This document shows positions 10,701-46,840 of a stretch of DNA of 64,000 nucleotides, piece after piece. The notes under the pieces are model-generated. The model saw only the letters and a program-made list of their open reading frames with translations, was not told the DNA's origin and ran no database searches. Source of the stretch: a virus (taxonomy: Duplodnaviria; Caudoviricetes); IMG/VR virus record IMGVR_UViG_2925282926_000001, positions 59,086 to 123,085 of that record; one strand, 5' to 3'. A program made the translations under genes and the position numbers. Position 1 is the stretch's first letter. Each line of letters opens with the position of its first letter.

Positions 10701-12052
10701 AATCCGAGGAGAAGCCCCGTCAACTCTTCCGCAACCTTACGCACGGCCGGCGCAAACATTTCACCTACCGTAATTCCGACGCCTTCAAGCGCGGACTGCA
10801 TTTCGTCAATGGCGCCTTTTAGCGTATCCATTTGGATCTCCGCGATCTCTTGCGCCGTACCTCCCGCGTTTAGTAGCGAGTTCGTGAACGAATCAAACGA
10901 AGCCTGCCCGTTATTGATCAGCGTTAATAGGCCCGAAGTTGACTCGACGCCCGCGATCATACCGGCCGCCTGTACTTGTTGCGCTTCGGTCAAATTCGCA
11001 AATGAGCGTTCCAACTGTCCGATTATGTTGCCGAGTGGGAGGAGGTTACCGGCCGCATCTGCTACGGTTATTCCGAGCTGTTCCATTGCGTATTGCGCCT
11101 GTTTCGGCGGCTTAACTAAACGAAGCAAGATCATACGTAGCTGCGTACCGGCCATTTCGCCCTGAATACCGGCGTTTGACAGAATGCCGACCGCTGCCGC
11201 TGTCTCTTCGATAGATGTGCTCAAGGATGCCGCGACAGGTGCGACGTATTTCATCGCGTATCCAAGTTGCTCAATATTCGTATTAGAGCTCGTCATCGCT
11301 TTTGCCATAACGTCAACTACGCGGCCCGTTTCGCCAGCTTCGAGTTGAAACCCCGTTAATATGTTCGATGCGATATCCGCAGTCCTTGCGATTTCCATCT
11401 GGCCCGCCGCTGCGAGGTTCAATACGCCAGGCATCGCGCTCATAATTTGTTCCGTCTTAAATCCGGCCATAGCGAGAAATCCCTGAGCATCCGCCGCTTG
11501 TGACGCGGTAAATACCGTTGTCTCACCGAGTTCTAGCGCCTGGTTACGTAAGTTTGCGAACTCATCCGCAGTTGCTCCGGAAATCGCCTTTACCTTCGCC
11601 ATCGACTGTTCGAACGTAGCCGCCGTCTGTACCGCTTTTGTTATTACTCCAGCCATCGCAACGGATAGCGCGGCATACGCAACGCCGAGCGCTTTGACTT
11701 CGCCACTTACGCGGTTAGTTGAGTTTGCGTTCTTCTCTAATTCCTGCGTAACCTTGTCGATCTCCGCGCTACTTGCTCCGAGCCGCTTCATTTCCTCACG
11801 TACGGCTTCGAGTTGCTTGCGTAGTAATTCCGGATTGGCTTTCCGCAGGCTTGCGTTAATCTTCTCGATCTGTTTTGACGACGCGCCGACTTCGGACAAG
11901 CGAGAGTTTAGCGCCCCAAACGATGCGGACGCGGCCTTTCCGGAGTCACCGAGCTCGCGCGCCTTCGACTTCGCCTTATCAATCGCTTGGTTATATCCGT
12001 TGACATCTGCGGTAATAACCGCGCGTATTCCTCCGACATCTACTGTAGTAAT
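7787..12052 (-). CDS. Tape measure protein (TP901 family); probable ATT start at 12052
   Basis: FEQSMAKVKAISGAT...TVFTASQAA...LAMAGF TP901 core, ~1420 aa; the track's GTG at 12061 lies inside the SD GAGGTG. Confidence 0.93.
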   Translation of the reverse strand: MTTVDVGGIRAVITADVNGYNQAIDKAKSKARELGDSGKAASASFGALNSRLSEVGASSKQIEKINASLRKANPELLRKQLEAVREEMKRLGASSAEIDKVTQELEKNANSTNRVSGEVKALGVAYAALSVAMAGVITKAVQTAATFEQSMAKVKAISGATADEFANLRNQALELGETTVFTASQAADAQGFLAMAGFKTEQIMSAMPGVLNLAAAGQMEIARTADIASNILTGFQLEAGETGRVVDVMAKAMTSSNTNIEQLGYAMKYVAPVAASLSTSIEETAAAVGILSNAGIQGEMAGTQLRMILLRLVKPPKQAQYAMEQLGITVADAAGNLLPLGNIIGQLERSFANLTEAQQVQAAGMIAGVESTSGLLTLINNGQASFDSFTNSLLNAGGTAQEIAEIQMDTLKGAIDEMQSALEGVGITVGEMFAPAVRKVAEELTGLLLGFNNLNPAMQASIVTFATVTPLILGAIVAIRALSVALKALVVTNPILLAISVTLGIVAAGISALVSSNNSAAEAARKHDEAQKSLNQTLNQSPMERTIKDVELLQEKTEDLNTALDERANLQQRLSEIESLQEQGLGTPALLTEMLEINDQLSEMDNKLRTMGYDGIEDATSKLGEMNDAINESTPALLAMKEAEIADIAAKYRQVESMEALLERFKTLSSAQTLDDAQKQELINTTEALRKQYPDLNAKMDESGRIRGQNIDVIEDHIAAERSFIDQSAAAANAYIDNLQAMANANKASIEAQISNLESLAKAMSAVAGVQSAPFKKSVTAVGGFSVNKSFETFASGGAEEQLSGLYDQQVKAQQAALEVARAKESLKSGSAYAKANPTGKFSAVKEKTPKSKKAASSKAKKEKSAAEVAQDLRDKAYNADLASIRYQAEMYDWSAEQQIKAYEKLRKAHAQHLKETVEDARTLNLQLKRLQEDSVKSRYDFSMTWIDKEERRMEDSGKSEVAIAEMKISALTRVRDRYKKDSDEYKDVDEALYKARKDLVKANEQAVADAYSASEKWIGKEERRMETAGKSELEITQMKIDAWTRVRDRHKKDSEYYEKAEDQLYNLRKKLVSETEKIADQLLKTEKTNIDAALKADLAAIDERKKAYIAEVDEKIAAIDRLLAKEAEYNSDADWETQRAEKLARIDLLSSAVGPEGIQEREDLIKEVERMELEHDRELRKRELESQKQALQDAKDERSSAFDDEKTEAQRQYDNLKDAFENHADDVKFIESAISEFRKNANAEANATILTSLDSFVTEYNAKMATLSAGPSGVGASSDLTEYNANKDAWAAAKSKGDSAEMARLTARNEELRKLYGIDKDTGKLQQFKVGGVVQGASGSAVPVIAHAGEMILNDAQIGNLFRMIAAGPSDTTAAPTQVVNHIDMSVNDVTLTDRADTETLYNERARVAQRLQTQGVKTR

Positions 12053-15199: not shown

Positions 15200-16291
15200 T
15201 TACGCCAAACCTTTGATGCGTGCGTGTGCTTGTTCTTGGTGCAATTCGAACGTGTACTCTCCGACGATCATACCTTGGTAGTAGTCGCCTTTTTTGCCGA
15301 GGTACTCGTGTTGGAAGTCACGGCCGTTCAGGTTACGGATGCTCGCGCGGTTTTTATCGACGATGAATACTTCGTTGGCCGCGAGGTTGTCGTTAATGGA
15401 CACCGGGAACTCACCGAAGTCGGTAGTCAGTTGTGATACAACGGTACCGCGACGTTTGTCCGCTTGGTCGATGCGGATCTTATCGTCTCCGAACGAGGAA
15501 ACTACGCGTTTTTGTTTCGCAGGAACGACGATTTCGTACATGCCGCCTGTTGCGAATCCACCTTTCGTATAAATCGCTTGCAGGCTATCGTTGACCATGT
15601 CCAGACTCAGCGCCGCACCTGCCGCGTCCTTAACGTTGGTATTGATCAAGCTACGTAGACCGGCCATTTGGCGAACGTTTCCGTTCTCATACTTGATACC
15701 GTTGATCAGCGCTTTTTCCAGTTGCAACGCGAGTTCCAACTGTTTCTTCGATTGCTCGTACGTGTACATGTCGGAAATACCGTAGTTAGCGACTGCTGCG
15801 GCTGTACCTGTGATCTCCACAGTATCCGTAAAGATTTGCGTCAGGTTCGACTTGCGCTCTCTACGCTTGAATCGCGCGTCGATTGCGTCGCGACCTTCTA
15901 CGGATTCCGTGAACTGGAACTCGATTACGTCGCCAGTTACTCCGGCTGCTGCGGTAGTACCTGCGTATCCGCGCGTTACAGTCAACGTTTTAGTACCCGT
16001 GTTGATCGCGGTAACTTTCAGCAGCTCATCGCCGAGTTTTACTACGTCGTTAACGCGGAAAGGCTCTACGGACGCGACAACGACTGCTGTTGCGCTGTTT
16101 GCAATGTCCGCTGTGATTGTGGACTCCGTCGAGAACATTGCGTCCTCATACCAGTTGTGTTCAACCTGGCTAACGGCACCGGCGAATCCGAGCATTGCCA
16201 ACATTGGCGTTTGGTGTGGGTTGAGTAGCAAAATCTCTTCTGTTACGGATTCCGGTTTACCGATCAGGTCTACGTTAAAAATCTTAGTCAT
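15200..16291 (-). CDS. Major capsid protein (SU10/DUF5309-like) with inserted beta domain
   Basis: TPMLAM...HNWYED...NLTQIF...LEKALING...GEYTFEL; follows scaffold. Confidence 0.88.
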   Translation of the reverse strand: MTKIFNVDLIGKPESVTEEILLLNPHQTPMLAMLGFAGAVSQVEHNWYEDAMFSTESTITADIANSATAVVVASVEPFRVNDVVKLGDELLKVTAINTGTKTLTVTRGYAGTTAAAGVTGDVIEFQFTESVEGRDAIDARFKRRERKSNLTQIFTDTVEITGTAAAVANYGISDMYTYEQSKKQLELALQLEKALINGIKYENGNVRQMAGLRSLINTNVKDAAGAALSLDMVNDSLQAIYTKGGFATGGMYEIVVPAKQKRVVSSFGDDKIRIDQADKRRGTVVSQLTTDFGEFPVSINDNLAANEVFIVDKNRASIRNLNGRDFQHEYLGKKGDYYQGMIVGEYTFELHQEQAHARIKGLA

Positions 16292-16329
16292 TGTTTAGTT
16301 CCTCCGTTTATGTGGGTTTTTGAGTAAAC

Positions 16330-16357
16330 AAAAAGGCTGCCCAGTTTTGGACAGCCC
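16330..16357 (-). terminator. U-tailed hairpin between scaffold and capsid genes
   Basis: GGCTGTCCA-AAAC-TGGGCAGCC-TTTTT. Confidence 0.6.
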
Positions 16358-17047
16358 TTAGCTCAGTTCTCTTTTTAATTGTGTAAACTTAGCGATTACT
16401 TCTGGTGTTGGATTCTCGCTGGCCTTTGCTTTGGCTTCCGCCAGGATCTGCTCTTTTGTCTTCAAAGGTTTTGCTTCGCCTCCGGACGGCGCTCCGATTG
16501 TTAACGGTTCGACCGGTGCCTGTTCGACCATGTACGGATTATCTTCGATCAGCGCCTTAACCGCGTCCTGTAGCCCTTTTACGTTGCCGTCACCGTCTAC
16601 TTCTACCGCGGATAGATCGACGAGTTTCAGCGCAGATTTAACGGCTTCCGGACGAAGTTTAAGCTCGCGGGCAACATCCCGGAACTCCGCTTTGATAAGG
16701 CGCTGGTTAGCGGCTGACATCGCGTCTTCCTTCGCTTTCTCGGCTTCTGCTGCGCGTTCTAACGCTTGAGTCCGTTCAGCTTCGGCTCTCTCTGTTGCGG
16801 ACATCTCCGCTTTTTGCCGTTCTTCCTCCGCGCTCTTTAACTTGGCGAGCTCGGCCTTCAAATCGTCGTAGTCTCCGTACTTCTTGCGTTCTCTCGCAAG
16901 GCGCTCCGTCACTGTCCGGTCCATATCCTCCTGCGTAAATGTCTTCGGTGGCTGCGGATCAGCCTGCGGGTCTTGCGGAGTTGGTTCCGGATTCGGGTCT
17001 TCATCTGCGAAAAGTTGCAAGTTCATCGGATACTTAACGTTTGTCAT
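16358..17047 (-). CDS. Head scaffolding protein
   Basis: MNLQLFA and KTFTQEDMD...ERLARE motifs, coiled coil. Confidence 0.88.
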   Translation of the reverse strand: MTNVKYPMNLQLFADEDPNPEPTPQDPQADPQPPKTFTQEDMDRTVTERLARERKKYGDYDDLKAELAKLKSAEEERQKAEMSATERAEAERTQALERAAEAEKAKEDAMSAANQRLIKAEFRDVARELKLRPEAVKSALKLVDLSAVEVDGDGNVKGLQDAVKALIEDNPYMVEQAPVEPLTIGAPSGGEAKPLKTKEQILAEAKAKASENPTPEVIAKFTQLKRELS

Positions 17048-19067: not shown

Positions 19068-19910
19068 CTAAATTCCTCCTCCGATATTTTCCGGATTGCG
19101 GACCGGAGTCAGTACGTGACGGCAACGTGGGTGAAATATTTCGCGACGAGGTAGGAAGCCTACGTAAGGATACTCTCCGGGAGCATCCGGTATTAACTTA
19201 ACGATGCGTCCTTCCCATTGAGCACACGCATCGTTCGCGCCATGGCTTGATATCCTGGCGTAATATGCTTCGCGTCCGATCGCTTCGTTTATCGTTGCGT
19301 CTCGGTGCGCGGAATTCAGTTTAGTTCGCGTCACGGTATCGACGTATACTTCCGGCTTCCAGCGCCGTCCAGCCGCGTCAATAATGCCGGTGTCTGTCGC
19401 ACTGCCTAGAGTCTTACGGATGCCTGCGAGCGTGTCCGCATTAATCGTACGGCGCCCGTTAATGCCTGACGCCATATTAGCGCGAAAAGATTCCGCAGTT
19501 GCTTGGCGGACGGCTTGACGAACTCGGCGGTCGATGTTTTGGGTTACCGCAAGTAAATCCGCCTGAGTATCCGCAATCGCCGACGCAACAAGTTCACGAT
19601 TGATTCGATTAAACTTAACGATTTTCTCCGCCTCGACTACCGTCTTAGCAACGCCGAGTTCAACGATTGCCCGCGTTACTCCGTCTATTGCTGCCTTCGG
19701 AATGTGCTCCGCAACCCAGGCGGCCGACTCCGCGTTTAGTTCACGCAAAATAACCGCAACCTCAGCGAGGGCGGCCTTTGCGTTTGCGCGTGATATATCG
19801 GATATGTCTAAGCGTGATAGCTCCGTTGCGATGGCGAGGATTCCGCGTTTGTATGCGTCGACGAGGCGGGCGATGTCGCGGTCGTAATTCGGATCTGGTA
19901 GGATCGCCAT
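19068..19910 (-). CDS. Minor capsid / head morphogenesis protein
   Basis: DAAGRRW...TRT...SSHGANDAC..WEG...FHPRCRH. Confidence 0.85.
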   Translation of the reverse strand: MAILPDPNYDRDIARLVDAYKRGILAIATELSRLDISDISRANAKAALAEVAVILRELNAESAAWVAEHIPKAAIDGVTRAIVELGVAKTVVEAEKIVKFNRINRELVASAIADTQADLLAVTQNIDRRVRQAVRQATAESFRANMASGINGRRTINADTLAGIRKTLGSATDTGIIDAAGRRWKPEVYVDTVTRTKLNSAHRDATINEAIGREAYYARISSHGANDACAQWEGRIVKLIPDAPGEYPYVGFLPRREIFHPRCRHVLTPVRNPENIGGGI

Positions 19911-21496
19911 TATACGGTGACCTCGTTAAATATTTCGCTATCGACCGTTCCGTTTACGCGTTTCTCATCGTCGTCAATACGGCGTATCGTTTCCTCCGCC
20001 TCTGCGTCGGTTACTCCGTCGAGGTCTTTGATTGCGTCTGTTACGGACCATGTCGGTTTGTTACCTGTACGGATGCCTGCGACCTCAGCCGCTTCTTTCT
20101 CGTTGCGCGGTATTCCATCGCGCCACCCTATCGTCGGGTAAACTTCATCGTACTTTTCGAACGTTGGAACGCCTTTATTCGCGATATTTTCAAGTAGCAT
20201 CGCTTTCCAAAGTGCGTTTCTAACCGCGCGATCTACATGAGTGCGGATACGTTCGACTTTCTTGAGTATCGGCATGAAACGAGCTTTAATCGCCGCACCG
20301 TCAGTGTGAGACGTGCCTGTTCCGCCGCTATCGGAAGTGATTGTCGTCCCGAATAACCATTGCGGAGTCTCTGCCATTTGGTAGATAAGTCCGAGAAGGA
20401 GCTCAAGCTCTTTAAACGCGCCGTCTAGTTGCGAGTTCCATGTCATGTAGCCCGGCGTGACGTCGTCTTTCTCAAGCGGAATGTACTTGCCACCAAACCG
20501 TACAGATCGGTCGTCCTCTTCGTCGATGTCCGGACCAAAAGCGGTCGGATCGGAATGCTTCCAGAGAATATAATCGATCTGCACGAGGCGGTCGTTAATC
20601 GCGGCCAGCTTACTTTCCATTTTCTCAACTGTCGAGATACCGGCCCAGTGGTCATCCGTTGTCTTATGCGGAATATGATCGATGTTCAAGTGTGGCGTTC
20701 CGGTCTTCATGATGTTTACTTCGCGTCCTGTCTCGACCTTCTCTCCGACGATATATAGCGGAATTGGGACTCCTTCTGACGTATCGACTCCGTTCGGAAT
20801 GAGCTTGTAACGTTCGAATACGATGTAACCGGGAATGTGTCTTTCAACGTTCAGAAAAGGCGCTTCGTTCAGCGTAACTTTACCGCGAATATACGACATA
20901 ATGCTCCGGGTCTGCTCAATCTCCCACTCTACCCACGCAACGTTAACCGCCTTAAACCGTTTCTTTGATCCGCGCGCTAATTCCGGAAATACAATCGACG
21001 GGTCAACCGTTTCGATGATCGGTTCCTTCTTCGTAGGCGGACGTTCGAGTTCGAGCTGATCCGTTTCCGTAAAGTCGTCGCGGTAGTCATACCGGACTTT
21101 CACGAACGAGTCTCCGCGATAACCGCCACCAACCGTAGTCTCGTGAATCATTTGATTTAAGTCGTTTTCCTCTACGATCGAGTTTAACCGTGATTGCTCG
21201 GTCGAATCCGGCCCCTTTCCGCTGTTGTACGTAGGTTTTTCGCCGACTAATAGGTCCGCGGGCTTCGTTACGAGTACGTCCACGATATTCACCGCGATAA
21301 ACAACGTCTTAAGTTGCGGTGCGTGTGGCGTATCTTTCAATAAAGCGGATGCTCTATCGTATATTTCAGCGTGTCTGCCTTCGAATATCTTACGTCCGCG
21401 TTCGTACTTAGCTAAGCGTCGTATCTCCGTTTGTGGCGGATATTGAGCGCCTGGGTAAAACAGCTTCGTTTCCTTCACCGTATAAAATTCGGTCAA
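19910..21496 (-). CDS. Portal protein (SPP1 gp6-like)
   Basis: 528 aa after terminase; YMTWN..L, ETPQWLFG, W.DGIP motifs. Confidence 0.88.
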   Translation of the reverse strand: MTEFYTVKETKLFYPGAQYPPQTEIRRLAKYERGRKIFEGRHAEIYDRASALLKDTPHAPQLKTLFIAVNIVDVLVTKPADLLVGEKPTYNSGKGPDSTEQSRLNSIVEENDLNQMIHETTVGGGYRGDSFVKVRYDYRDDFTETDQLELERPPTKKEPIIETVDPSIVFPELARGSKKRFKAVNVAWVEWEIEQTRSIMSYIRGKVTLNEAPFLNVERHIPGYIVFERYKLIPNGVDTSEGVPIPLYIVGEKVETGREVNIMKTGTPHLNIDHIPHKTTDDHWAGISTVEKMESKLAAINDRLVQIDYILWKHSDPTAFGPDIDEEDDRSVRFGGKYIPLEKDDVTPGYMTWNSQLDGAFKELELLLGLIYQMAETPQWLFGTTITSDSGGTGTSHTDGAAIKARFMPILKKVERIRTHVDRAVRNALWKAMLLENIANKGVPTFEKYDEVYPTIGWRDGIPRNEKEAAEVAGIRTGNKPTWSVTDAIKDLDGVTDAEAEETIRRIDDDEKRVNGTVDSEIFNEVTV

Positions 21497-21514: not shown

Positions 21515-23281
21515 TTACATTCCGCGTGGTTTATTGCGGACTTTCTTGCGTCCTGATTTCGATATGCTGATCGCCATTTCCGCCGCATCCGGTAAATCGT
21601 CATGGCTACCGGTTCCGTAATACTCGAATTGTTCTAGTAACAGCGCGTGCCTCTTCGAAAACTGTATCGCGCCGCCTTCGATATCCGGCAGCATCGCCTC
21701 AATCCGAAGCTCTTTACGCGACCGCTGATGTATCTCCTTAACGCGAGTTCCCGCCGGATATCCCGCAGCTCTCAGCGCCTCTTTTAGCTTCTGTACGAAA
21801 AATTCCTGCGCTGCTTGTGCCTCAGCCGCGATTCCAACCGGCTGAAACCGCACGACCTTTTCGACGATTACGCGAATAAACTCGTCAGGCTTAACGCGTT
21901 CCCCGTAAGCATCGATAACGTACTTCGTGCCGGTCTTCTTGTGCCGCGCGATCGTAACAATAGCGGAATAGTCTCCACGCTGTTTACCCATCGCAAAGTC
22001 AACGCCGGTGTAGACGTCTGATTCTCGCAGGATCGCGTCAAGCTCCGTCTTTCCGTCCCAATACGTAAATGACTCCGGGTTAAACACCATCGATTCCTCG
22101 TCAACCGGATTGTTTTGATACTCCGTGTTAAACGCCTTCGATCCGTTGTCCCATTTGAATTTCATCAAGCGCCATATCGGTTGTGCTTCCGGCCACAGTA
22201 CGCTGACTCCGCGCTCCATTTCCTCGCGATTCGCTTCGTAAAGTTCGACCGCATCCTTTGCGCGTTCTTCCTTCGGCCTGTCCGGATCTTTATAGACGAG
22301 CCGACACGCTTCCCACAAGTCCATCCGTTCAGGCCAATCGATAACTGCGCGATATATACGGCTTTTAAAGTCTGCGCGATTATAAAGCACGTCGACGAGG
22401 AGAGCTTCGTGGTGGACCGTTGTTCCCATGTAAACGAATGCCGTCCGTTTACCTTTCGGATCTCCGAGCGGTACGACCGTTTGAGCGAACCAGTCCCGCA
22501 GCTTCTTACGCAAGTCCGGCGTTGATGCGTTACCGCCTGGCCGCGCATCCTCTAAGTCGTCACATACGATCAAGTCCGGACGCACGCCGTTCCAGTTACG
22601 TCCACGGAGCGCCTGGCCCGTTGATGCCGCTTCAACCTTCGTAAGTAGCTTCTTAGTACCGTCTTCGCGCGGCTCCCATGCGATAAACTCCGAGCTGTTG
22701 TCCTTCGGATTCTCCTGCTGCTTCGGACTCAACAACGGACCGAAGTCTGCGCGCAGTTTAACGTTGCTTTTAAGCTGCATCGCGATCCAATCGAGGTTGC
22801 CGGAGCTGACCGTTGGCGTATCCGAAATAATGATCTCGTACTTACGCTTCCTGTACGCAATCTCCCGCAAAGGGAAGCCCTTGGATAAATACGTTGATTT
22901 CGCGTGAGAACGGGGCGCCGCCACCGCGACCTTATCGTTTGTCGTAACGTTGGAGACATCGTCCATTATCACGGCAATTTCACGGTGAAATACAGGCGCT
23001 AAGTCCGCGTCCGTAATATCGAAGCCGTCCCAGTTTCCGTCGTTGCCGGGATTCCGCGCTTCCGAGAAGTACTCTAGCGCAAATTCGATCAGATCCGTTT
23101 CGCATCGGTGAATCCGTTCCAACCGCTCATACTCCGCAAGCTGAGCGTCAATGTCCGCCGCGTCATCCGCTGAAAGTTCGGCGATATCTACGCCTTCGAG
23201 AACGTCTAATAGCGCGGACAGCTCGTTAAGCTTCGTCGCGCGCTCGTCTCGTCCGATCCATTTTCCGTTAGTCCATGCGAT
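21515..23281 (-). CDS. terL: Terminase large subunit; probable ATC start at 23281
   Basis: APRSHAKST Walker A, LRG...RPDLIVCDDLE, DFAMG...DYSA, HDDLPDA; frame open 53 codons beyond the track start up to AAAGGAGG-N8-ATC GCA TGG. Confidence 0.93.
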   Translation of the reverse strand: MAWTNGKWIGRDERATKLNELSALLDVLEGVDIAELSADDAADIDAQLAEYERLERIHRCETDLIEFALEYFSEARNPGNDGNWDGFDITDADLAPVFHREIAVIMDDVSNVTTNDKVAVAAPRSHAKSTYLSKGFPLREIAYRKRKYEIIISDTPTVSSGNLDWIAMQLKSNVKLRADFGPLLSPKQQENPKDNSSEFIAWEPREDGTKKLLTKVEAASTGQALRGRNWNGVRPDLIVCDDLEDARPGGNASTPDLRKKLRDWFAQTVVPLGDPKGKRTAFVYMGTTVHHEALLVDVLYNRADFKSRIYRAVIDWPERMDLWEACRLVYKDPDRPKEERAKDAVELYEANREEMERGVSVLWPEAQPIWRLMKFKWDNGSKAFNTEYQNNPVDEESMVFNPESFTYWDGKTELDAILRESDVYTGVDFAMGKQRGDYSAIVTIARHKKTGTKYVIDAYGERVKPDEFIRVIVEKVVRFQPVGIAAEAQAAQEFFVQKLKEALRAAGYPAGTRVKEIHQRSRKELRIEAMLPDIEGGAIQFSKRHALLLEQFEYYGTGSHDDLPDAAEMAISISKSGRKKVRNKPRGM

Positions 23282-23394
23282 AGATACCGCCTCCTTTCAT
23301 AATTACGTTGATTTAGCGTGAAATTAGCGTGTTTAGGCGCTGACCCCAACGGATACACTCCGTACGGGTGAAACGCGCTATTTGTACGGTGATT

Positions 23395-26202: not shown

Positions 26203-26427
26203 TTACAGACCGCCGCCCTCGCACAAGTCCGCGTTACTATTTACGAACCCGGCGCACATACGATCGCAGATTACGGAGGTACAGTCGAAAAGTATACGCC
26301 AGATTACGTTAAGATCGCCGGCACGTATTTCAGGCGCGATATCTTCGTATTTAAGGCGCAGCAGGCACGAAAAAGACCGGATTAGCTCCGGTCCCACCTT
26401 CGTATCAATCGCAATATCCTCCGCCAT
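26203..26427 (-). CDS. Hypothetical protein (alternative ATT start at 26409)
   Basis: ORF track; GGAGG-N8-ATT inside. Confidence 0.4.
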   Translation of the reverse strand: MAEDIAIDTKVGPELIRSFSCLLRLKYEDIAPEIRAGDLNVIWRILFDCTSVICDRMCAGFVNSNADLCEGGGL

Positions 26428-27716: not shown

Positions 27717-28523
27717 TTATGCGGCCGTTAATAGCTCGGCAACTTCTTCCGCTTCCTCACGCACTATCTCCGTTTCATTCATCGCGCCCATCTCGGTAGC
27801 CCAACGCTTGCCAATGCCGACGCAATTAACGAAGGGCTCCGTAAGTTCGCCGCCATTTTCGTAGAGATTATACGTAACTACTTTACCAGGCGCGATGTCG
27901 CGTAAGTATTGGATCGCACGTTTCCTATTCCGTATCTTAGCGGACGAGTCCACGTGTAACAGCTCGCTCATTGAACGAGTCCTGCGAATGGGTCTTCGGT
28001 AATCCTTTCCGTCAGTAGCCAGGTGTACGCCTGTTTTAGAGTGCATCTCCGCCGTCCCACCATCTCCTTCAACATTAAGACCGGTCTCCCCGCCCATATT
28101 GGTATCCTCGGTTCCTCTCCTCCCTTCTCTTCTGCGCGCCATCATTGTATCAGAGAATATCGGGTACTCATTATGCTCACATTTATAAGGGTCTTCGTCT
28201 ACAAGCTCTTCGTGGAGGACGATGTTAGTTAGCCGATCCATTAGCTTCATATCAGTTGGTACTGCAGCAGGACGCTCTCCTTTAGCGCCCGCAGCGAACC
28301 ACTCATCGACAATCCGTTGATTAAACTCACCATGACTGCCGTAGTATTCTTTTTGAATAGCAGCAACCAGTAGCATCCGCGTCTCCCGATCCCGCAAGTC
28401 ATGCGTAATCCCTCCGTACTCGAACGGAATTTGCGGACAACCCGCAGCTTTGAACCTTGCGCGTAGTATAAACTCCATAGCCTCCGTTGCCTGTACCGTA
28501 TCCTCGCGATATGTTGTTGTCAT
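27717..28523 (-). CDS. Hypothetical phage protein
   Basis: Coupled to sigma-like gene; LxxxxLHEEL.D..PYK...EYPIFS. Confidence 0.7.
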   Translation of the reverse strand: MTTTYREDTVQATEAMEFILRARFKAAGCPQIPFEYGGITHDLRDRETRMLLVAAIQKEYYGSHGEFNQRIVDEWFAAGAKGERPAAVPTDMKLMDRLTNIVLHEELVDEDPYKCEHNEYPIFSDTMMARRREGRRGTEDTNMGGETGLNVEGDGGTAEMHSKTGVHLATDGKDYRRPIRRTRSMSELLHVDSSAKIRNRKRAIQYLRDIAPGKVVTYNLYENGGELTEPFVNCVGIGKRWATEMGAMNETEIVREEAEEVAELLTAA

Positions 28524-28930
28524 TAAACCGCCTCCTCTTCGTTATCTTCGATTTCTCCGTCAAACTCAACGCTAACCTCTCCGTACTCCCAACGCTTATA
28601 AACCGCCGCCATCTTCTCCGCCGCGTCATCGATCAACTTGGCGACTCCCTGCTGCGTAATTCCCATCTGACGCGCTGCTTCCGCTTGTGTAACGTCAATT
28701 CCGTATACAAACGCAATCGCTTCCGTCTGGCGATCTGTCAAGGCAGCGCTGTTAATTGCGCTATGCAAATCAACGAGGATACAGACCGCGTCATAATCGC
28801 CGCGAAAGCGAGCCGAGCTAATCCGGTGGCGATCGCGTAATAACGCCTTAACTCCGGCCGCGTCGTTTAGCGAGTATCTAACGTTGTAGCTGCGCGAACC
28901 CTTTTCTATGTCAATCTTCACATGACCGAT
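28523..28930 (-). CDS. Sigma-70 region-4-like HTH protein, probable late-gene activator; probable ATC start
   Basis: LTDRQTEAIAFVY...TQAEAARQMGITQQGV; AAGGGAG-N9-ATC GGT CAT GTG. Confidence 0.75.
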   Translation of the reverse strand: MGHVKIDIEKGSRSYNVRYSLNDAAGVKALLRDRHRISSARFRGDYDAVCILVDLHSAINSAALTDRQTEAIAFVYGIDVTQAEAARQMGITQQGVAKLIDDAAEKMAAVYKRWEYGEVSVEFDGEIEDNEEEAV

Positions 28931-30962: not shown

Positions 30963-32183
30963 TTACGCCACCTCCTTCCGTGGCTCTGCGCTGTCTGACT
31001 CGCGGCTGTCGTCGATAATAGATGCGTCGCATGAAATAGCCGTTGAGAGATACGTAAATTTACGCGTATCTAGATTAGTGAACGGAAAATCAGCGACTAC
31101 GGCAGCGACACGCGCTGTATTACTTGCGCCATATTTAACGATATCCCCAACGCGTACTTCCGTAGGTTGCGGCGCGCTAACGTACTCTTCCGGAATCTCC
31201 AAGCCGAGCGCACGTCTTAACGCTACCACTTTACCGATCCACACGTTGAATACGTCGCCTGGCGCACATTTTGCGAAGCCTAACGCGCGTTTCTTTCGAT
31301 TGCCGTACGCTTCAAATCCGAGAACAACGACCGTACGTTTACCCCGGTTAACTACGAACTCTTCGATAACAACGGTGTTAAACGGACCTCCACGTCTATG
31401 AGCGAATCCGTCTTCGTCGATAAGGCGTGACACGTCATCCTTCGCACGCTTAACGATGTCATCACGGATTTCTTGCGGAGACTTAATCGTGCATTTTGTA
31501 AACGAAGGATGTGACGCTGGCTTATCGGCTCTCCGCGGAGTAGGCTTAGCGTTGGCAACTTCGAGCAGGGACACACGTCTTTCGAGCGAAGCCACTCGCG
31601 TCGTTAAAGCCGCGATAATCTCGGCCGCTTGTTCAGGCGCGGGCTTGGCGGAGAGAGGTTCGGGTTGTTGTGCGGATTCTGCGCTTTCTACCGGTTCAAG
31701 TACGCGGTATTCACTTCGATAAACGAACACCCACGTTTCGTCCGTATATACGCCGTCTTTATAGTTCCCAAGCCGATTGACCGTCATAATATTACCGTTC
31801 CGATACGCGTCTGTAGCGGTCTTTGCGTCAATGATAATAACGCGCTCGCCCACCGTGGCTTTCCGATCGACCATGCGGAAGCGGGCGCCGTTGATGCGAA
31901 TGATGTCCGATGGTTCGAGCGTTACGTACGAAGTGTGGTCCGTGTTAAGGAACCCGTCACTGTCGTGTGTTAGCGTCGTGTCGATAGAACCGTCATCGAA
32001 CTGGTCATTGCGCGTACACTTTCCGATCGAATCTACGACAGCCGGACCATAATCCTCAGCAACCGTGGTCACCTTAACGTACTCACCAACGTCTGCCCAC
32101 CGCTTAACCTCGCGATACTCACGCTCAACGACGCGTCCTGCACCGCTGAGGTTTTCGTCTTTCAATACGGTAATATTCGTCAT
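30963..32183 (-). CDS. Modular SH3-like repeat protein (paralog 1)
   Basis: YREVKR/EYRVLEP modules plus AKCAPGDVFN..IGK..ALRRALG domain. Confidence 0.7.
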   Translation of the reverse strand: MTNITVLKDENLSGAGRVVEREYREVKRWADVGEYVKVTTVAEDYGPAVVDSIGKCTRNDQFDDGSIDTTLTHDSDGFLNTDHTSYVTLEPSDIIRINGARFRMVDRKATVGERVIIIDAKTATDAYRNGNIMTVNRLGNYKDGVYTDETWVFVYRSEYRVLEPVESAESAQQPEPLSAKPAPEQAAEIIAALTTRVASLERRVSLLEVANAKPTPRRADKPASHPSFTKCTIKSPQEIRDDIVKRAKDDVSRLIDEDGFAHRRGGPFNTVVIEEFVVNRGKRTVVVLGFEAYGNRKKRALGFAKCAPGDVFNVWIGKVVALRRALGLEIPEEYVSAPQPTEVRVGDIVKYGASNTARVAAVVADFPFTNLDTRKFTYLSTAISCDASIIDDSRESDSAEPRKEVA

Positions 32184-32206: not shown

Positions 32207-32656
32207 TTAGTTATCGATTTTAACGCGTACTTTCTGGCGACCGAACTGGCGCGCTTCCTTCTCCGACGCGACTAATACGTCAAGCTTGCGGCCTTTAATC
32301 AAACTTCCGGTATCCTCCGCAATCGCTGCGATCTCCGTACCGTCTGCCAAACGGATCGTTAGCGGAGTATGAAGCGGGATCACGCGCTTATCAACGGCCA
32401 CAACGCGCCGCCCTTCGTGTGTGATCGTGTTCCTTACGTCGAGCTCCGTATAAGTCCAACCGCTGCATCCTTCGGAACATAGCGCAATATAAGCGGTCGC
32501 TTCGTACGTTGTCCACACGTCTTCCTTCGCAGATTTGCCTGTTACCTGCGAAGATTTTTCGGCCGGTTGCGTAGGTTCGTTCGGAGGGATTCCGTTAACT
32601 GCGTTCAATCCGATTGACATTGCGAGTATGATTTGCGCGATTATACTTAGCGAGAT
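32207..32656 (-). CDS. Secreted 3D-domain (MltA/Stp-like) cell-wall protein; probable ATC start
   Basis: EATAY...VAVDKRVIPL...AEDTG..IKGRKLDV; ATC start supplies the signal peptide. Confidence 0.88.
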   Translation of the reverse strand: MSLSIIAQIILAMSIGLNAVNGIPPNEPTQPAEKSSQVTGKSAKEDVWTTYEATAYIALCSEGCSGWTYTELDVRNTITHEGRRVVAVDKRVIPLHTPLTIRLADGTEIAAIAEDTGSLIKGRKLDVLVASEKEARQFGRQKVRVKIDN

Positions 32657-36170: not shown

Positions 36171-37052
36171 TCACGCGGCTTCACCGTCCTTAGCGCCTTC
36201 TTGCGTGTAGTCAGCGTCAGTGTCGTCGATGATTGCGCAGTTCTTTACCTCCGAGTTATATCCGTTAGTGAACACGTATGCCTTACCGTCCATTAAGGTA
36301 CGTTCAACAACGCGAGTCGTACCGATGTGCGCGCCGCTAACCTTACGGATAATAACGCCGGCTACCGCTTTCTCCGGCTTCGGCGCATTCACAAACGCCT
36401 CCGTCAGCGTCAGTCCGAGCGCACGTTCTGCCGCGATTGCCTTGCCGATGTCTGCGTTGAATACGTCGTCAGGCGCACACTTTGCGATGCCTACTGCGTC
36501 GGGCTTGCGGCGGTTACCAGAAACGTGTACGAGCGCTGTTACGGTGCGCTTGTCGCGATTAACGTGAAACTCTACGTTGAAGTAGCGGTAATGAAACGGA
36601 GTACCCTTCGGAAGGTCTTCGTGGAGCGAGTTACCGATGCGTTTTAACTCCGCCACCCTTTCGCGAGCCATTTCGATAACCTTGGCGCGAGTTAAGGACT
36701 CCGTTACCTCTACGGCCGGCTCCGCTTCCTCCGCACTATCAACCGGATCGATCTCCGCCAAGTATTTACGTACGGCGCCGGCATTGTCACGGATGAATTG
36801 CGCGAAGAGGTCCGGGAGATTTGCGGTTGTCGGCGCGATCGGTTCGAGTACTACGTATTCGCGGTGGAAGATACCGGCACGCTCACTTTTCGATGTGACT
36901 GCGCGTACTCCCGACGGTTCCACGGAATCTACTACGAGTTCATCACCATTTTTGTAGCGGCCTCCACTAAGCACCGCGGCTACGATCTTAATGCGTTCAC
37001 CTGCGTTGGCTTTGCGTTGAACTTCGCGGAATGTTTGAGTTGCGTTGGACAT
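36171..37052 (-). CDS. Modular SH3-like repeat protein (paralog 2)
   Basis: FREVQRKANAGERI...EYVVLEP plus AKCAPDDVFN..IGK.IA..RALG. Confidence 0.7.
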   Translation of the reverse strand: MSNATQTFREVQRKANAGERIKIVAAVLSGGRYKNGDELVVDSVEPSGVRAVTSKSERAGIFHREYVVLEPIAPTTANLPDLFAQFIRDNAGAVRKYLAEIDPVDSAEEAEPAVEVTESLTRAKVIEMARERVAELKRIGNSLHEDLPKGTPFHYRYFNVEFHVNRDKRTVTALVHVSGNRRKPDAVGIAKCAPDDVFNADIGKAIAAERALGLTLTEAFVNAPKPEKAVAGVIIRKVSGAHIGTTRVVERTLMDGKAYVFTNGYNSEVKNCAIIDDTDADYTQEGAKDGEAA

Positions 37053-38188: not shown

Positions 38189-40285
38189 TTAGACAGCGCA
38201 AGATGTGCACTCGGCTACGGATAGCAGTTTATTACGCGTATAATACAACGACTTAAGGCCGAGTTTGTGAGCGGTCAGATAATACCGGACGAGCTCGTTA
38301 GTTGGCGTTTTTGAGTCTACGTAAAGGATCGTCGATATCCCCTGGTCAACGTGGCGCTGGATTGTCGCAACCATTTCGAGAATCTTACGCTGATCCATAT
38401 TGAACGCGCTAGTATACGAAATCATGTTATCGCGCGCCAGGAACGGAGCCGGATAATACGTCGTTGAGTTACCGTATGTCCGCGTCTCCATTACGTCAGA
38501 AATCGGCAATACGGAGCTCGTTGCGTTTTGCACATACGAGATACTTTGCGTTGGTGCGATCGCAAGTCTATACGCGTGCCACAAACCGTGTTGTTCAACT
38601 TCCGCCGCCAAGCGTTCCCACAAGTCCGGACCCGGCAATTCAATGCCTGCAGCCGCGAACATATCCGCTACTTTTTCGAATTTCGGACGGAAGTCATTTT
38701 CGATATACTGCGTGAAGTACTTACCACTCGCGTAATCAGAACGATCGAATCCGTAGAACGTACCGCCGCGCTCCTTAGCGATCTGCATCGAGCGCTCAAT
38801 CGAGTAGTAGTTAATTGCGGCGAAGAATGCGTCGGCAAAGTCACGGCCGATTTCGGATTGATACGATATGCGGTTCTTCATCAGGAAGCCGTGAAGGTTC
38901 ATTGCGCCGAGCCCTACGCTGTGCATCAAGTCGTTAGCCTTACGTACGCCTGGCGCATTGGCAATTGCAGTCATATCGGAGACGGCGGTTAACGAGTCCA
39001 TCGCGGAATGAACAGCGCGGCGAAGGTTTCCGGAGGCCATTGCGGTAACGATATTTAATGACGCGAGATTGCACGAGATATCAAGGCCGATTTCGTCAGG
39101 CTGTCCATAGTCGTTGATAGTATTAGTTTCCATTAGCTGGAAAATTTCCGTGCAGAGGTTTGACATCTTCACCTGACCGATGCCTTTCAGCGCATGACCT
39201 TCGTTCGCATTGTCTTTGAACATGAGGTACGGGTATCCGGATTCTAGCTGCGTCGTCGCAATCTTCGTCAACATATCACGCGCATTTAGCTCACGTTTCT
39301 TAACGGAAGGATTCGCAACCAGCTCGTCATACATCGCGCTGATATCCATATCGTCCAGATGCGATCCATACGCTTTGAATACGGTGTACGGTGCGAATAC
39401 GTAATACGGCTCGTTTGTCTCCGCCAGTTCAATAAACTTGGACGGTACGATTAGTCCGATCGACAACGTTTTAAGGCGGGACCGTTCATCCGCGTTAATC
39501 TTCTTCGCATCAAGCAGCTCCATTACGTCCCATCCGAAGATGTTGTAATAGACGGCGCCGCTACCTTTCCGTTGTCCCATTTGATCCGCGTATGAGAACG
39601 CCATTTCGAGCTGTTTAGCGACCGGGAGAATCCCTTTCGCTACGCCTTCCTCTTCTTTAATCGCCTCGCCACGTCCGCGCAGCTTCGATAGGTTAAGCGC
39701 AACGCCGCCGCCAATCTTCGAAAGTTGCATCGCAGTAGTATGCGCGTGTCCGATCGCGTTAAGGCTGTCGTCTACTTCCGTAAGGAAACACGATACCATT
39801 TCGCCGCGTCTCGCTTTACCTGCGTTAAGGAACGTAGGCGTGGCCGGCTGAACTCCGTTTAAGTAGCCCCACAGTAACTCCCGCGCCATCTCGTAATTGC
39901 CTTGCGCCAGGTATAACGCGGTGATTGCGTAACGTTCCTCCGGCGATTCCAGGTACGTTTTCTTATCGCGAGTCTTGAGCGCATAATCCGTATAGTATTT
40001 GAACGCGGCCATGTACGAAGCGAAGCGCAGGTTAGCATCGTCGGCCATGCGGTGAATCTCCGTGATCTGCGCCGGAGTGTATTGCGTCAACACTTCCGGA
40101 TAGTAATATCCGTTGTCAATCATGTATTGAACGCGATCCATTGCGGAGTCAAACCGCATCTTATTATCGCGGATAAAGCGCATGAACTCCTCGACGGCCT
40201 CCGTATCCTTTTCGAGCTGGTAGAATCCGTCCTTCATTACGGTAACTTCGTTATTGAGTTCGATATATTTATACGTTTGTGACAA
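38189..40285 (-). CDS. nrdE: Class Ib ribonucleotide reductase alpha subunit
   Basis: PATPTFLN, VSCF, MSNLCTEI, CNL, APTQSIS, C-terminal CTSC. Confidence 0.97.
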   Translation of the reverse strand: MSQTYKYIELNNEVTVMKDGFYQLEKDTEAVEEFMRFIRDNKMRFDSAMDRVQYMIDNGYYYPEVLTQYTPAQITEIHRMADDANLRFASYMAAFKYYTDYALKTRDKKTYLESPEERYAITALYLAQGNYEMARELLWGYLNGVQPATPTFLNAGKARRGEMVSCFLTEVDDSLNAIGHAHTTAMQLSKIGGGVALNLSKLRGRGEAIKEEEGVAKGILPVAKQLEMAFSYADQMGQRKGSGAVYYNIFGWDVMELLDAKKINADERSRLKTLSIGLIVPSKFIELAETNEPYYVFAPYTVFKAYGSHLDDMDISAMYDELVANPSVKKRELNARDMLTKIATTQLESGYPYLMFKDNANEGHALKGIGQVKMSNLCTEIFQLMETNTINDYGQPDEIGLDISCNLASLNIVTAMASGNLRRAVHSAMDSLTAVSDMTAIANAPGVRKANDLMHSVGLGAMNLHGFLMKNRISYQSEIGRDFADAFFAAINYYSIERSMQIAKERGGTFYGFDRSDYASGKYFTQYIENDFRPKFEKVADMFAAAGIELPGPDLWERLAAEVEQHGLWHAYRLAIAPTQSISYVQNATSSVLPISDVMETRTYGNSTTYYPAPFLARDNMISYTSAFNMDQRKILEMVATIQRHVDQGISTILYVDSKTPTNELVRYYLTAHKLGLKSLYYTRNKLLSVAECTSCAV

Positions 40286-43999: not shown

Positions 44000-46840
44000 T
44001 TACGCAGCCTCCTTCAATTTTGGACGTCCATTTTCGAAATCCCAGTCGCTCGGGCGGACCTCGTTCATCCATCGGGTTTCGATTACCGTGTCACAGTCAA
44101 GCGGACAGGCAAACGTAGCTGTGTTCGTCATGATGTCGGTATATAACGTGACTGTCTCTTCCGTAATCTGATCGGTCGGAGCCGCGTGTTTCTGCTCATC
44201 GTGGAGAGTTAGCGTAAACTCCCAGCCACGCGCCACGGTCAATTCGTAATAGCTGCGAATCATACATAGCTTGAGTACATTCGCGCCGCTACCTTGGATA
44301 CGGTGATTAAACGCAGCCCTTTCGTCACGTCCCGTTAGGCGGATGAGTTGCCAAAACTCCGCGCTTCCCTCTTTACCTAGCTTGCGCGATTTAACTCCGA
44401 GTTGAGGATCGTTCTTGTCTACGATACCTACGCGCTTCATCAACACGCAGAGACGCTGCCAGTTCTTCCGGTATTCCGGAAACCTCCGTTTTTGCCCCCA
44501 CAATGTCGCCGTCCATCCGTACTTACGTAGATGTTCGAATGACGCGTTAACCATCGTACTGAATCCCGGAAGAATCTCGTCGAACTTCGCGTATGCACGT
44601 TTACCTTGTTCCGTTGTGATACCACGTTTAATCGCCGTCTTAACGAACTGATCCTCAGCTTGACCGTATCCTTTCGCAAGGAACATATCTTTCGTCAGTT
44701 TACGATAAGGAACCGTAGTCAATCCGTTCTTATACGCCTTCTCGAAGCAAAGATCGCGGTCTACTTCGAACATGATTGACGCGAACTCTACGTAAGGATC
44801 GAGTCCTTTTCTGTACATATCCGCGAATATATCGTCACTGTGTTCAACAGCCATGATATGCGCTTGAAGGCGTGGCTCGATCGAAGATAAGTCGCTACCG
44901 AGAAACGTATGTCCTGGCGGCGGTTTAAACGTCATCCGGACACGTTCGCCTTCCTTCGTACGTGCTGGTATATTTTGTAAGTTGGTTCCCTTTGCTACGG
45001 ATTTCTCCGCGCATTCAACGAGCTTCCGCATTGTACCGAGATAGTTCTCGTCGGTTACCGGACCTGATCGGATGTCGTTTGGCTTACCGCTGTATCCCTT
45101 CGAGGAGTATCGTCCGGTCGAAACCATATCGAGCTGCGTATGCAAGCGTCCGTCTACGTCGAGAGCTTTCGGTATTTTGTCTACGTATGTGTTCAGTAGC
45201 TTTTCGTACGCGGACACGTTTGCCAGCGGCTTGAGCGCTTCCTCCTCTTCGTAGTACCGTTCGAGAACGTCCTTTGATACCGCGCGTTCTTTCTTCTTGT
45301 CCTTGACGATCTGCTTCGTACGGTCCTCAATTCCGAGGTGATCGTAGATCAGATATCGCAAGTGGTTATCGTTGGTGAACGAGAACTCCGTTATGTTTAA
45401 TGGCGCGTTCTCCTCGTCAGATGGCGCTAGGTCCTCCGCTTGTAGTTGCGCAAGCCTTTCGATCGCACTCGTATACTTCTTGAGCGACGTTTTGCCTGCC
45501 GCTTCACACTCCGCAATAATAGCGCGTTGTTTCGCCTGCGCCTCTTCGTTACGCGCAATCCTGCGACGCTGCTTATCAATCCAATCCGTTACCTTCGCGG
45601 AGTATAGTGCGCGGTCCATCTTTCGTAAGAACTCCGGATCGGTTACGCCATATGCTTCGATAACATCCGCCTGGGCTTGCGCTAGCTTCGGACGGAGTTC
45701 GTCTCCGAGCGCCTGCAGATCATCGAGGTCAATTACGAAGCCGGTACGCTCGATATTAACGTTGACTTCCGATAGATACTGCGTTATCTCGAAGAAGGAC
45801 ATCGCCAGGTTATCCGTTGCGACAATGTTATCGATCTGCCAGCGCGTCAACCACCAGCCTTTGAGTACGTCCCATATCGCGTATATTCCTACGACCTCGA
45901 CCGGATGAAGCATCGGGGACTCCTTCGCAAACAGATCTTCAAAGGTTGTATCCGGAGCCTCTACGCCAATAATCGATTTGTACTTCGTTATCAGCGGCTT
46001 CAATGCGTAAGTGTCTTCGTTATCATTTAGCGTTCTTTGTGCGGCCACTGAGTCATAACGGATACCTTGCGGCGTCAGCCCGTCGTTAAGCATCATCGCT
46101 AAGTCAAACTCCGCGTTATGGAACGATTTAATCTGCGAGGGCAGCGCCATAAACTTCGCGATTGCTCCTAGCGCTTTCGACCGCGTACATTGCTTCTCGC
46201 CGGTCAAGTGTCCGTAAGCTACGTAATATCCTTCGTTGAGTAGCGGAAGCCAAACGGAGTAACCGCCGGTCAGGTCGAGCATCTTGTCGAGTCCGGATGT
46301 CTCCGTATCCCAAACGGTTAGTGATTCCGCGTCAGGAATATCGATTCCGCGTTCAGCGAGCTTCCGTTTAATCAACGTATTGTTAAAGAGCACGAAGACT
46401 TTGCGGAACCACTCATCATCCTTCTGTAGCCGGACTTCTTCCCGTAATCTCGCGATCATCTTCGGCAACTCCGCGTCCTCCGTCACGATATGGAAATTCG
46501 CCGGCTTCGACCGCAGCGTCTCCGCAACTTTATCCGCACGCGCATCCGTTTGCCGTTGCCGTAACAATACGTCTGCTGCGCGAATAACGTCATCCTTCGA
46601 AATGGTGCCGCCCGCAGTACGCAGGGCCGGACGATTGCCTGTTTCGCCCGATCCGTACGCCTGCCGCAGCTCTTCAACCATTGCGCGCTGTTTATCCGTT
46701 AGTGACATTCGTAGTACGCGATCAATCGCTTCTGCATCCGTCTCCTGCGCAGCCTTCTTCCGTTTGGCGGCGTCGGCCACGCGTTCCACCGCTCCGTCAT
46801 CCGCAGGCGGCCGTAAGTTTAACGTTAATTTCGGTGGTAT
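44000..46840 (-). CDS. Family A DNA polymerase with 3'-5' exonuclease; probable ATA start
   Basis: WDTETSG, FHNAEFD, TGRYSS...NLQNIP, DLSSIEPR, IQGSGA, LHDE. Confidence 0.95.
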   Translation of the reverse strand: MPPKLTLNLRPPADDGAVERVADAAKRKKAAQETDAEAIDRVLRMSLTDKQRAMVEELRQAYGSGETGNRPALRTAGGTISKDDVIRAADVLLRQRQTDARADKVAETLRSKPANFHIVTEDAELPKMIARLREEVRLQKDDEWFRKVFVLFNNTLIKRKLAERGIDIPDAESLTVWDTETSGLDKMLDLTGGYSVWLPLLNEGYYVAYGHLTGEKQCTRSKALGAIAKFMALPSQIKSFHNAEFDLAMMLNDGLTPQGIRYDSVAAQRTLNDNEDTYALKPLITKYKSIIGVEAPDTTFEDLFAKESPMLHPVEVVGIYAIWDVLKGWWLTRWQIDNIVATDNLAMSFFEITQYLSEVNVNIERTGFVIDLDDLQALGDELRPKLAQAQADVIEAYGVTDPEFLRKMDRALYSAKVTDWIDKQRRRIARNEEAQAKQRAIIAECEAAGKTSLKKYTSAIERLAQLQAEDLAPSDEENAPLNITEFSFTNDNHLRYLIYDHLGIEDRTKQIVKDKKKERAVSKDVLERYYEEEEALKPLANVSAYEKLLNTYVDKIPKALDVDGRLHTQLDMVSTGRYSSKGYSGKPNDIRSGPVTDENYLGTMRKLVECAEKSVAKGTNLQNIPARTKEGERVRMTFKPPPGHTFLGSDLSSIEPRLQAHIMAVEHSDDIFADMYRKGLDPYVEFASIMFEVDRDLCFEKAYKNGLTTVPYRKLTKDMFLAKGYGQAEDQFVKTAIKRGITTEQGKRAYAKFDEILPGFSTMVNASFEHLRKYGWTATLWGQKRRFPEYRKNWQRLCVLMKRVGIVDKNDPQLGVKSRKLGKEGSAEFWQLIRLTGRDERAAFNHRIQGSGANVLKLCMIRSYYELTVARGWEFTLTLHDEQKHAAPTDQITEETVTLYTDIMTNTATFACPLDCDTVIETRWMNEVRPSDWDFENGRPKLKEAA

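Follow-up and report, generated by a model that had tools for sequence, protein, structure and literature searches.

Start codons other than ATG, GTG, and TTG are annotated in bacterial genomes at frequencies of 0.004–0.024% per codon (PMC5499595). In Escherichia coli, such near-cognate codons have an output of 1–2% and are rejected by initiation factor 3 (IF3), which accepts TTG (PMC5499595). They start infC (AUU/AUC) and E. coli pcnB (AUU, PMC5499595). In Staphylococcus aureus, AUU or AUA codons located behind extended Shine-Dalgarno (SD) sequences start cvfC1 (AUU), ccpN (AUA, conserved in Bacillus subtilis), citZ (AUA), and infC, with about 10%, and up to 30%, of the output of AUG (PMC13009471). 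Canonical codons also differ in strength, as in cyaA, for which UUG, GUG, and AUG give a ratio of 1:2:6 (cited in PMC5499595). We report here on a 64,000-nucleotide stretch of viral DNA (the window; positions 59,086 to 123,085 of IMG/VR record IMGVR_UViG_2925282926_000001) containing a prophage in which seven genes, including those encoding the terminase large subunit (terL), the tape measure protein (TMP), and a family A DNA polymerase (polA), carry ATC, ATT, or ATA (ATH) at the start position. In the long operons of this prophage and of its family, the start codon probably acts as a gene-by-gene dosage dial, which combines a strong SD with a weak codon.

The phage sites resemble those of S. 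aureus in the near-cognate codon, the strong start-proximal SD, the Bacillota host, the conserved position, and the proposed role in attenuation. They differ in number, with four sites in the entire S. aureus genome versus about 6% of the genes in each of 31 phage genomes, and in codon usage, ATC being dominant, CTG and ACG being used in addition, and orthologs interchanging weak codons. Output has been measured in S. aureus, whereas the phage starts are known from sequence. The infC gene belongs to the same codon class, and the host infC of lysogen genomes starts at ATT or ATC behind GGAGGTG at a similar spacing (ATC in Paenibacillus auburnensis, ATT in the others). However, IF3 feeds back on the start of its own gene, infC. 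Autoregulation of this type was rejected for the phage genes, since the seven encode proteins of packaging, the tail, replication, and the wall, a nuclease, and a sigma-like protein, none of them a translation factor. The closer analogy is pcnB, which encodes an enzyme kept at a low level. As in cyaA, the start codon would set the level of the protein, and the same phage genes use TTG when their start is canonical, but the phage dial would run below TTG, into codons ignored by gene callers. The individual parts are known from infC, pcnB, and the extended-SD sites of S. aureus; what appears to be new is their systematic and conserved use across the core genes of a phage family. No published account of systematic near-cognate starts in phages was found by a search outside which most subscription journals lay.

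Seven near-cognate starts in the window prophage

A preliminary description of the window had assigned ATH starts to seven genes. The SD, the spacer, and the codon were found at the coordinates that it had given for each of the seven, all on the minus strand. Its gene labels agree with profile matches (PF, phrog), apart from a putative role as late activator for the sigma-like protein and a putative signal peptide for the hydrophobic N-terminus of the 3D protein:

7787..12052, minus strand: TMP, 1421 aa; start ATT at 12052-12050; SD GAGGTGAT at 12064-12057; PF10145, phrog_1533
21515..23281, minus strand: terminase large subunit, 588 aa; start ATC at 23281-23279; phrog_38, E 6e-86
28523..28930, minus strand: sigma-region-4 (sigma-like) protein, 135 aa; start ATC at 28930-28928 behind AAAAGGGAG; phrog_3512 match from residue 2
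32207..32656, minus strand: 3D-domain cell-wall protein, 149 aa; start ATC at 32656-32654; SD AAGGAGG at 32670-32664; PF06725
40986..41528, minus strand: RuvC-like resolvase, 180 aa; start ATA at 41528-41526; SD AGGAGGTGA at 41542-41534; PF02075
41717..42763, minus strand: Cas4-like PD-(D/E)XK exonuclease, 348 aa; start ATT at 42763-42761; SD AGGAGG at 42777-42772; phrog_1706
44000..46840, minus strand: DNA polymerase family A (polA), 946 aa; start ATA at 46840-46838; SD GAAAGGAG at 46856-46849; PF00476, PF01612

The aligned SD spacing at these sites is 6–7 and the SD duplexes range from –13 to –18 kcal/mol. No in-frame ATG, GTG, or TTG competes at a proper spacing, and the GTG located 3 codons upstream from the TMP, RuvC, and polA starts is part of the SD itself, as had been noticed. 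The next canonical start is located downstream by 51 codons for TMP, 53 for terL, 3 for the sigma-like gene, 12 for the 3D gene, 105 for RuvC, 27 for the exonuclease, and 17 for polA, with SDs that are at best GGAG. The first ATG of the 3D gene (+12 codons) has no SD, and its use would delete most of the hydrophobic N-terminus.

The virus record, of 123 kb, comprises two adjacent prophages, and the window is its final 64 kb. The window prophage has a GC content of about 52% and nearly all its genes are on the minus strand. Its host is probably a Paenibacillus strain of the P. amylolyticus group, since the nearest terminases are found in genomes of P. amylolyticus (95% identity) and P. tundrae (92%). 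Relatives sharing its gene order, with terL identities of 53–64%, are Bacillus phages phi18-2 and 268TH007 (also 268TH002), Sporosarcina phage Lietuvens, and the Paenibacillus Halcyonevirus phages (Halcyone, Tripp). The family consists of temperate phages of Bacillales of about 55–70 kb, and was represented by the window prophage and 30 further genomes (31 family genomes).

Alignment of orthologs placed all seven ATH codons opposite ATG, GTG, or TTG starts preceded by a conserved SD. For the six genes other than terL, the aligned first codon in orthologs is ATG, GTG, TTG, CTG, ATT, ATC, ATA, or ACG. Codons are thus swapped only among those capable of starting translation, which identifies a true start rather than an internal isoleucine codon. 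In the N-terminal extensions, nonsynonymous differences (pN) were well below synonymous differences (pS) for terL (n = 20) and for the exonuclease, polA, TMP, and 3D genes (n = 2–3 each); the RuvC extension, of 8 codons only, was uninformative. Judged by these alignments, the seven ATH starts are all genuine. Sequencing errors or recent mutations of ATG were rejected as a cause, since dozens of independent assemblies, as well as isolated phages, show the same codons. Translational coupling was also rejected as a general cause, the near-cognate starts adjoining an upstream stop in 33% of the cases versus 35% for ATG.

The extent to which the codon varies differs between genes. The exonuclease gene (38 distinct orthologs) has ATT 12, TTG 11, ATC 5, CTG 4, ATA 3, ACG 3, and ATG 0, with 14 changes on the tree among these six weak codons. 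The distribution is TTG 11, ATC 8, ATA 6, ATG 6, ACG 3, CTG 1, and GTG 1 for polA (36 orthologs, 20 changes), CTG 11, ATG 7, ATT 6, ATC 5, ATA 4, ACG 3, TTG 3, and AGG 1 for RuvC (40 orthologs), and ATT 5, ATG 3, ATA 2, GTG 2, and ATC 1 for TMP (13 distinct orthologs). ATC is retained at equal spacing in 11 distinct orthologs of the 3D gene, for which 11 of 14 genome calls are non-canonical. Sigma-like orthologs begin with MGHVK at the same position, mostly at ATG (43 of 59; ATC 10, GTG 3, TTG 3), and the ATC of this gene is labile, with 9 changes and with GTG (G001) or ATG (G018) in relatives at 80–89% identity.

Such variability might reflect near-neutral drift. Ribosomes of Bacillales would cope with near-cognate codons behind strong extended SDs and let the start codon wander where little protein is demanded, so that weakness is tolerated rather than favoured. 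The 14–20 codon changes in 36–59 orthologs of the exonuclease, polA, RuvC, and sigma-like genes and the prevalence of ATG in the latter are as expected from drift. Yet ATG is one mutation away from every weak codon and was found in 0 of 38 exonuclease orthologs. Together with the conservation of the terL codon and the low rate in unrelated phages, both described below, this leads us to regard drift as distinctly unlikely.

The exonuclease ATT is located immediately 3' of the TAA of the preceding gene; readthrough of this in-frame stop was rejected because many orthologs with no adjacent in-frame stop retain the SD and the weak codon. Five orthologs of the 3D gene (L088, L089, G009, L075, G015) have GTC, GTA, or ACC, two steps away from ATG, at the aligned position behind the SD, and these may be still weaker starts or, possibly, decayed genes. 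In four other genes of the window, an ATH codon directly adjoins an in-frame ATG: 55444/55441 (DnaB), 24485/24482 (terS), 19913/19910 (minor head protein), and 34054/34051. The SD spacing favours ATH in the first three (7 versus 10, 7 versus 10, and 6 versus 9). The start codon of all four is ambiguous and was counted as canonical.

26203..26409, minus strand: candidate eighth gene, discarded; frame antisense to a frameshifted plus-strand gene

An eighth start had been proposed, with reservation, at ATT 26409. It was discarded. The frame is the antisense of a plus-strand gene (ATG at about 26190) that carries a frameshift in this genome. About 9 nucleotides after the ATT begins a 9-bp hairpin that ends in a U-run (–14.1 kcal/mol) and is unlisted by a consensus terminator scan, and the ATT is not conserved among relatives. 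The plus-strand gene itself (26190-26385) is small and conserved (MKTLITD), and a short deletion accounts for its frameshift in the window. An apparent ATA start behind AAAGGAGG is present in the orthologs of G001 and P. amylolyticus.

The terminase start

A tblastn search with terL identified 78 full-length homologs (56–92% identity) whose alignments begin at residue 1. All have a GGAGG-like SD ahead of the start, at an aligned spacing of 6–9 that is nearly always 7. Among 96 distinct homologs, the codon for residue 1 is ATC in 86, TTG in 3, ATG in 3, ATA in 2, ATT in 1, and GTG in 1. The start is annotated at this very codon in Halcyone (ATG), phBC6A51 (ATG), KLEB27-1 (TTG), and Lietuvens (GTG). 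The first 25 codons are under purifying selection (pN 0.21 versus pS 0.56). The third position of the ATC codon underwent 3 changes among ATH on the tree, versus 9–30 at ten conserved isoleucine columns; this difference weighs against drift, although drift agrees with the existence of several terL lineages that have ATG and no visible consequence.

Phages with ATC at terL have hosts in Paenibacillus, Cohnella, Brevibacillus, Bacillus, Virgibacillus, and Terribacillus. Such strict retention of codon and context in phages of several host genera is compatible with control by host physiology, near-cognate starts sensing free IF3 or growth state. The genes would then be poorly expressed in the lysogen and rise after induction or stress, replication and packaging genes increasing as initiation fidelity drops, and no phage factor would be needed. 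IF3 does discriminate against near-cognate codons (PMC5499595), and the ccpN AUA, otherwise about 10% efficient, reaches 30% in rich medium (PMC13009471). However, TTG, which IF3 accepts, freely replaces ATH, CTG, or ACG (11/38 orthologs for the exonuclease, 11/36 for polA, and 23/41 for the portal gene), and the near-cognate set mixes early and late genes. Control of this kind seems unlikely to us. Since TTG is so freely exchanged with the near-cognate codons, it is the level of expression, rather than sensitivity to IF3, that would be selected.

The terL start has a feature that may explain the retention of ATC itself:

23277..23298, minus strand: terL initiation region; SD GAAAGGAGG at 23298-23290, tail GCGGT

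The tail can pair with the anti-SD, which extends the SD, or form a 5-bp hairpin with ATCGC, within which the start codon is hidden. The motif is GCG(A/G)T-N4-ATCGC, so that the start codon can pair with the SD tail. The hairpin has a mean energy of –4.8 kcal/mol and the start codon is paired in 78 of 90 ATH homologs. The extended-SD motif is present in 75 of these 90 sites, and the hairpin and the motif occur together in 72. In silico, the mean pairing probability of the start is 0.83 with ATC and 0.24 with ATA. ATC is therefore probably kept for its additional pairing with the SD tail in this small hairpin, which may have a role of its own at this start. The hairpin and the extended SD are inseparable here because both predict the same 5' arm, and the hairpin may be a by-product of extended anti-SD pairing. 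A DNA palindrome acting as an operator is conceivable; GCGGT outnumbers GCGAT, which suits wobble pairing in RNA and weighs against an operator.

Family-wide rate and choice of genes

All genomes were analyzed with one gene caller that allowed near-cognate starts at a penalty, decoy codons being run as a control. In the 31 family genomes, near-cognate starts were called for 145 of 2458 genes (5.9%) and decoys for 28 (1.1%). Controls included SPP1, phi105, WBeta, Harrison, Lily, BalMu-1, the neighbouring prophage of the virus record, and others, together with samples of host chromosomes. The unrelated Bacillales phages and prophages had 5 near-cognate calls among 605 genes (0.8%), against 3 decoys (0.5%), and this near-decoy rate in phages of the same hosts is a further point against drift. 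The only call in SPP1 is probably spurious and internal to the gene for the large terminase. Host chromosome samples had 5 calls among 260, one of which was infC, at a decoy rate of 0.8%. Calls are fewer in more distant relatives, with 5 in Halcyone, one each in Lietuvens, phBC6A51, KLEB27-1, and Mgbh1, and none in FA70. A count that depends less on the gene model agrees with the caller: in the 31 family genomes, among non-canonical codons located at an SD spacing of 7–8 near the 5' end of real genes and lacking a canonical codon nearby, 74% were ATC, ATT, ATA, CTG, or ACG, versus 10% expected, and ATC was 16-fold enriched.

As the preliminary description had proposed, the near-cognate starts are biased by gene function. 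They fall into about 19 ortholog groups, with a concentration statistic of 64 versus 21 ± 1.2 in within-genome shuffles. By class, they account for 79% of the 3D/lytic transglycosylase genes, 37 of 86 nuclease genes (43%), 50 of 256 low-copy virion and packaging genes (20%), and 19% of methyltransferase, 10% of replication enzyme, 8% of nucleotide metabolism, and 6% of regulator genes. None was found in high-copy virion and assembly genes (0/167, 92% ATG), in genes for single-stranded DNA-binding protein (SSB; 0/23), or in other conserved genes (0/460). The following genes of the window illustrate the two extremes, weak starts in the first three and the contrasting set in the last:

19910..21496, minus strand: portal gene; TTG here
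38189..40285, minus strand: ribonucleotide reductase alpha gene (nrdE); TTG here
48130..48540, minus strand: PD-(D/E)XK endonuclease of a weak-start group; TTG here; PF11645 match below cut-off
15200..17047, minus strand: scaffold and major capsid genes; ATG starts

Portal orthologs have TTG in 23 of 41 cases and ATH in several, with CTG in Halcyone and ATC in 268TH007. The nrdE orthologs (n = 31) have TTG 19, ATG 6, and ATH 5, and the endonuclease orthologs ATG 21, TTG 8, ATC 7, ACG 7, GTG 3, and ATA 1. In the family genomes, scaffold and major capsid genes start at ATG in 31/31 and 24/24 cases, respectively, and a near-cognate start was never seen for capsid, scaffold, or tail tube.

Potent or toxic lytic functions, as first proposed, are not supported as the common feature of the near-cognate set. 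Near-cognate starts were absent from the two lysis groups examined, endolysin and holin-like (0/24), and they are found in nrdE, methyltransferases, the portal, tail proteins, and a helix-turn-helix (HTH) regulator. The proposal agrees with the nucleases being the most enriched class and disagrees with the lability of the ATC of the sigma-like gene. In five Bacillus-side members of the family (268TH007 gene 30, G013, G016, G017, G021), the gene for this regulator, a small protein, begins with ACG, preceded by GGAGGTG or GAGGTGA at a spacing of 7; weak starts are therefore not limited to lytic enzymes.

Weak codons and strong SDs are found together. Among canonical members, the TTG share is 35% in near-cognate groups versus 9% elsewhere (Spearman 0.49). 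In 13 of 15 groups, near-cognate members have a stronger SD duplex than their ATG counterparts within the group (Wilcoxon p = 0.0015), and the spacing is 7–8 in 96 of 116 near-cognate starts versus 31 of 96 ATG starts. The extended SD motif is present at 30% of all near-cognate starts versus 7% of ATG starts, ranging by codon from 7 to 44% outside terL.

Regulation of dosage by start codon would operate as follows. A strong, often extended SD would hold the 30S subunit and place the near-cognate codon 7–8 nucleotides from the T position of the SD. The initiator tRNA would decode this codon poorly and host IF3 would reject most attempts, so that little protein is made; low output and the involvement of IF3 are suggested by the E. 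coli and S. aureus precedents. Weak starts would be reserved for proteins that are wanted in small amounts or do damage when abundant (nucleases, polymerase, terminase, portal, tape measure, wall enzyme), and the proteins made in bulk (capsid, scaffold, sheath, tube, SSB) start canonically, almost always at ATG. The selected trait would mostly be weakness rather than one particular codon, as orthologs exchange ATH, CTG, ACG, and TTG, with the exception of terL. The presence of such codons in about 6% of the family genes, including essential core genes, suggests a systematic use of start weakness for stoichiometry.

Several observations weigh against this explanation. The terL gene underwent about five independent reversions to ATG, GTG, or TTG and outgroup phages are canonical; its weak start is therefore not essential. 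The genes for Dit, connectors, and DnaB are low-copy yet mostly canonical. As the family genomes are related to one another, the counts above do not represent independent events; the functional classes were drawn up by hand once the data had been seen; and the caller demands an SD for non-canonical calls, so that the contrast in SD strength is partly built in.

Position by position, the orthologs provide a natural allelic series of ATG, GTG, TTG, CTG, ATH, and ACG in one gene, which bears on the question of why degenerate starts exist. Isolated phages contribute to this series: in 268TH007, the terL, portal, and wall enzyme genes begin with ATC, a methyltransferase gene with ATA, and the HTH gene with ACG, and in Halcyone the portal and RuvC genes begin with CTG and the polymerase gene with ACG. 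GenBank records of relatives do not report near-cognate starts, and the papers describing 268TH007 and Paenibacillus larvae phages, which used Glimmer and GeneMark, do not mention them (PMC9476937, PMC6070908). In 268TH007 (ON210834, L081/L082), the ATC starts of terL and portal are located 105 and 64 codons, respectively, upstream from the annotated starts. In Halcyone (MH460827, L298), the CTG start of the portal gene, behind AAGGAGGTGA, is upstream from an annotated internal GTG. These three genes are probably mis-annotated. Public annotations of the phage family thus shorten the terminase, the portal, and other proteins, with consequences for cloning and structural studies.

Proposed joint release and candidate trans-acting factors

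The preliminary description had also raised the possibility that the whole set is released together by a phage-encoded factor. Such a factor would lower IF3 proofreading during lytic growth, or an alternative initiator would be supplied. The trait is family-wide and about sevenfold commoner than in unrelated phages, which a universal core factor could explain, and several core genes have no known function. However, there is no coordination at the genome level: the dispersion of near-cognate starts per genome was 16.2 versus 16.8 ± 4.2 in shuffles (p = 0.53), a test which a factor present in every member escapes. Phages G038, G016, and G013 begin terL canonically yet retain non-canonical starts in other genes. 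Neither an IF3 homolog (tblastn of the family genomes at E 0.1) nor an initiator-type tRNA was found in 37 family and related genomes, and high-copy genes never use near-cognate codons, although a relaxed ribosome would allow them to do so. In the window, ARAGORN detected no initiator tRNA and no tRNA matching the odd starts; the tRNAs of the 37 genomes are scattered Leu, Arg, Trp, and Ala species only, mostly at the ends. We therefore consider joint release by a phage factor very improbable. A broader version is improbable: a universal core protein, encoded by one of the uncharacterized early genes, or the state of infection itself would lower IF3 proofreading, and the near-cognate starts of nucleases, polymerase, terminase, and tape measure would make up a translational regulon, shut in lysogeny and open during lytic growth, the terL hairpin acting as an added switch. 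A start codon peculiar to the phage and decoded by its own initiator tRNA was rejected, as no such tRNA was found and five different codons are in use.

The search for candidate factors covered fold models of two core families of no known function. Three paralogs that contain SH3-like repeats and have a C-terminal domain in common (30963-32183, 36171-37052, and 46882-48063, minus strand) are present in 29 of the 31 family genomes, in several copies, and almost always start at ATG. This family gave no clear sign of a trans-acting factor: hits were weak (Rv2632c-like, below cut-off; uL14, E 0.012), and the model (predicted local distance difference test, pLDDT, 89) matched generic SH3/KOW folds only, with a best Z of 7.7 over 54 residues and the C-terminal domain barely covered. 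The other product, encoded by 27717-28523, likewise gave no clear sign of this role, its predicted fold matching helical bundles only (best Z 7.1). The ESM Atlas returned hypothetical proteins only. The 27717-28523 gene (minus strand) is a core gene of 29 of the 31 genomes that overlaps the stop of the sigma-like gene and has many invariant Arg residues; its product is a candidate partner of the sigma-like protein.

Two minor observations concern the hosts and the neighbouring prophage. Besides infC, three Paenibacillus genomes have a second, divergent IF3_C match (G039:C1:991964-992209, G040:C3:468854-469102, and G043:C7:9925-10170), which in G039 is far from the prophage. The unrelated neighbouring prophage, outside the window, is almost devoid of non-canonical starts and carries what appears by eye to be an Agr-like peptide signalling cluster, with AgrB-like and LytTR-like open reading frames (G000:C1:21604-23586).

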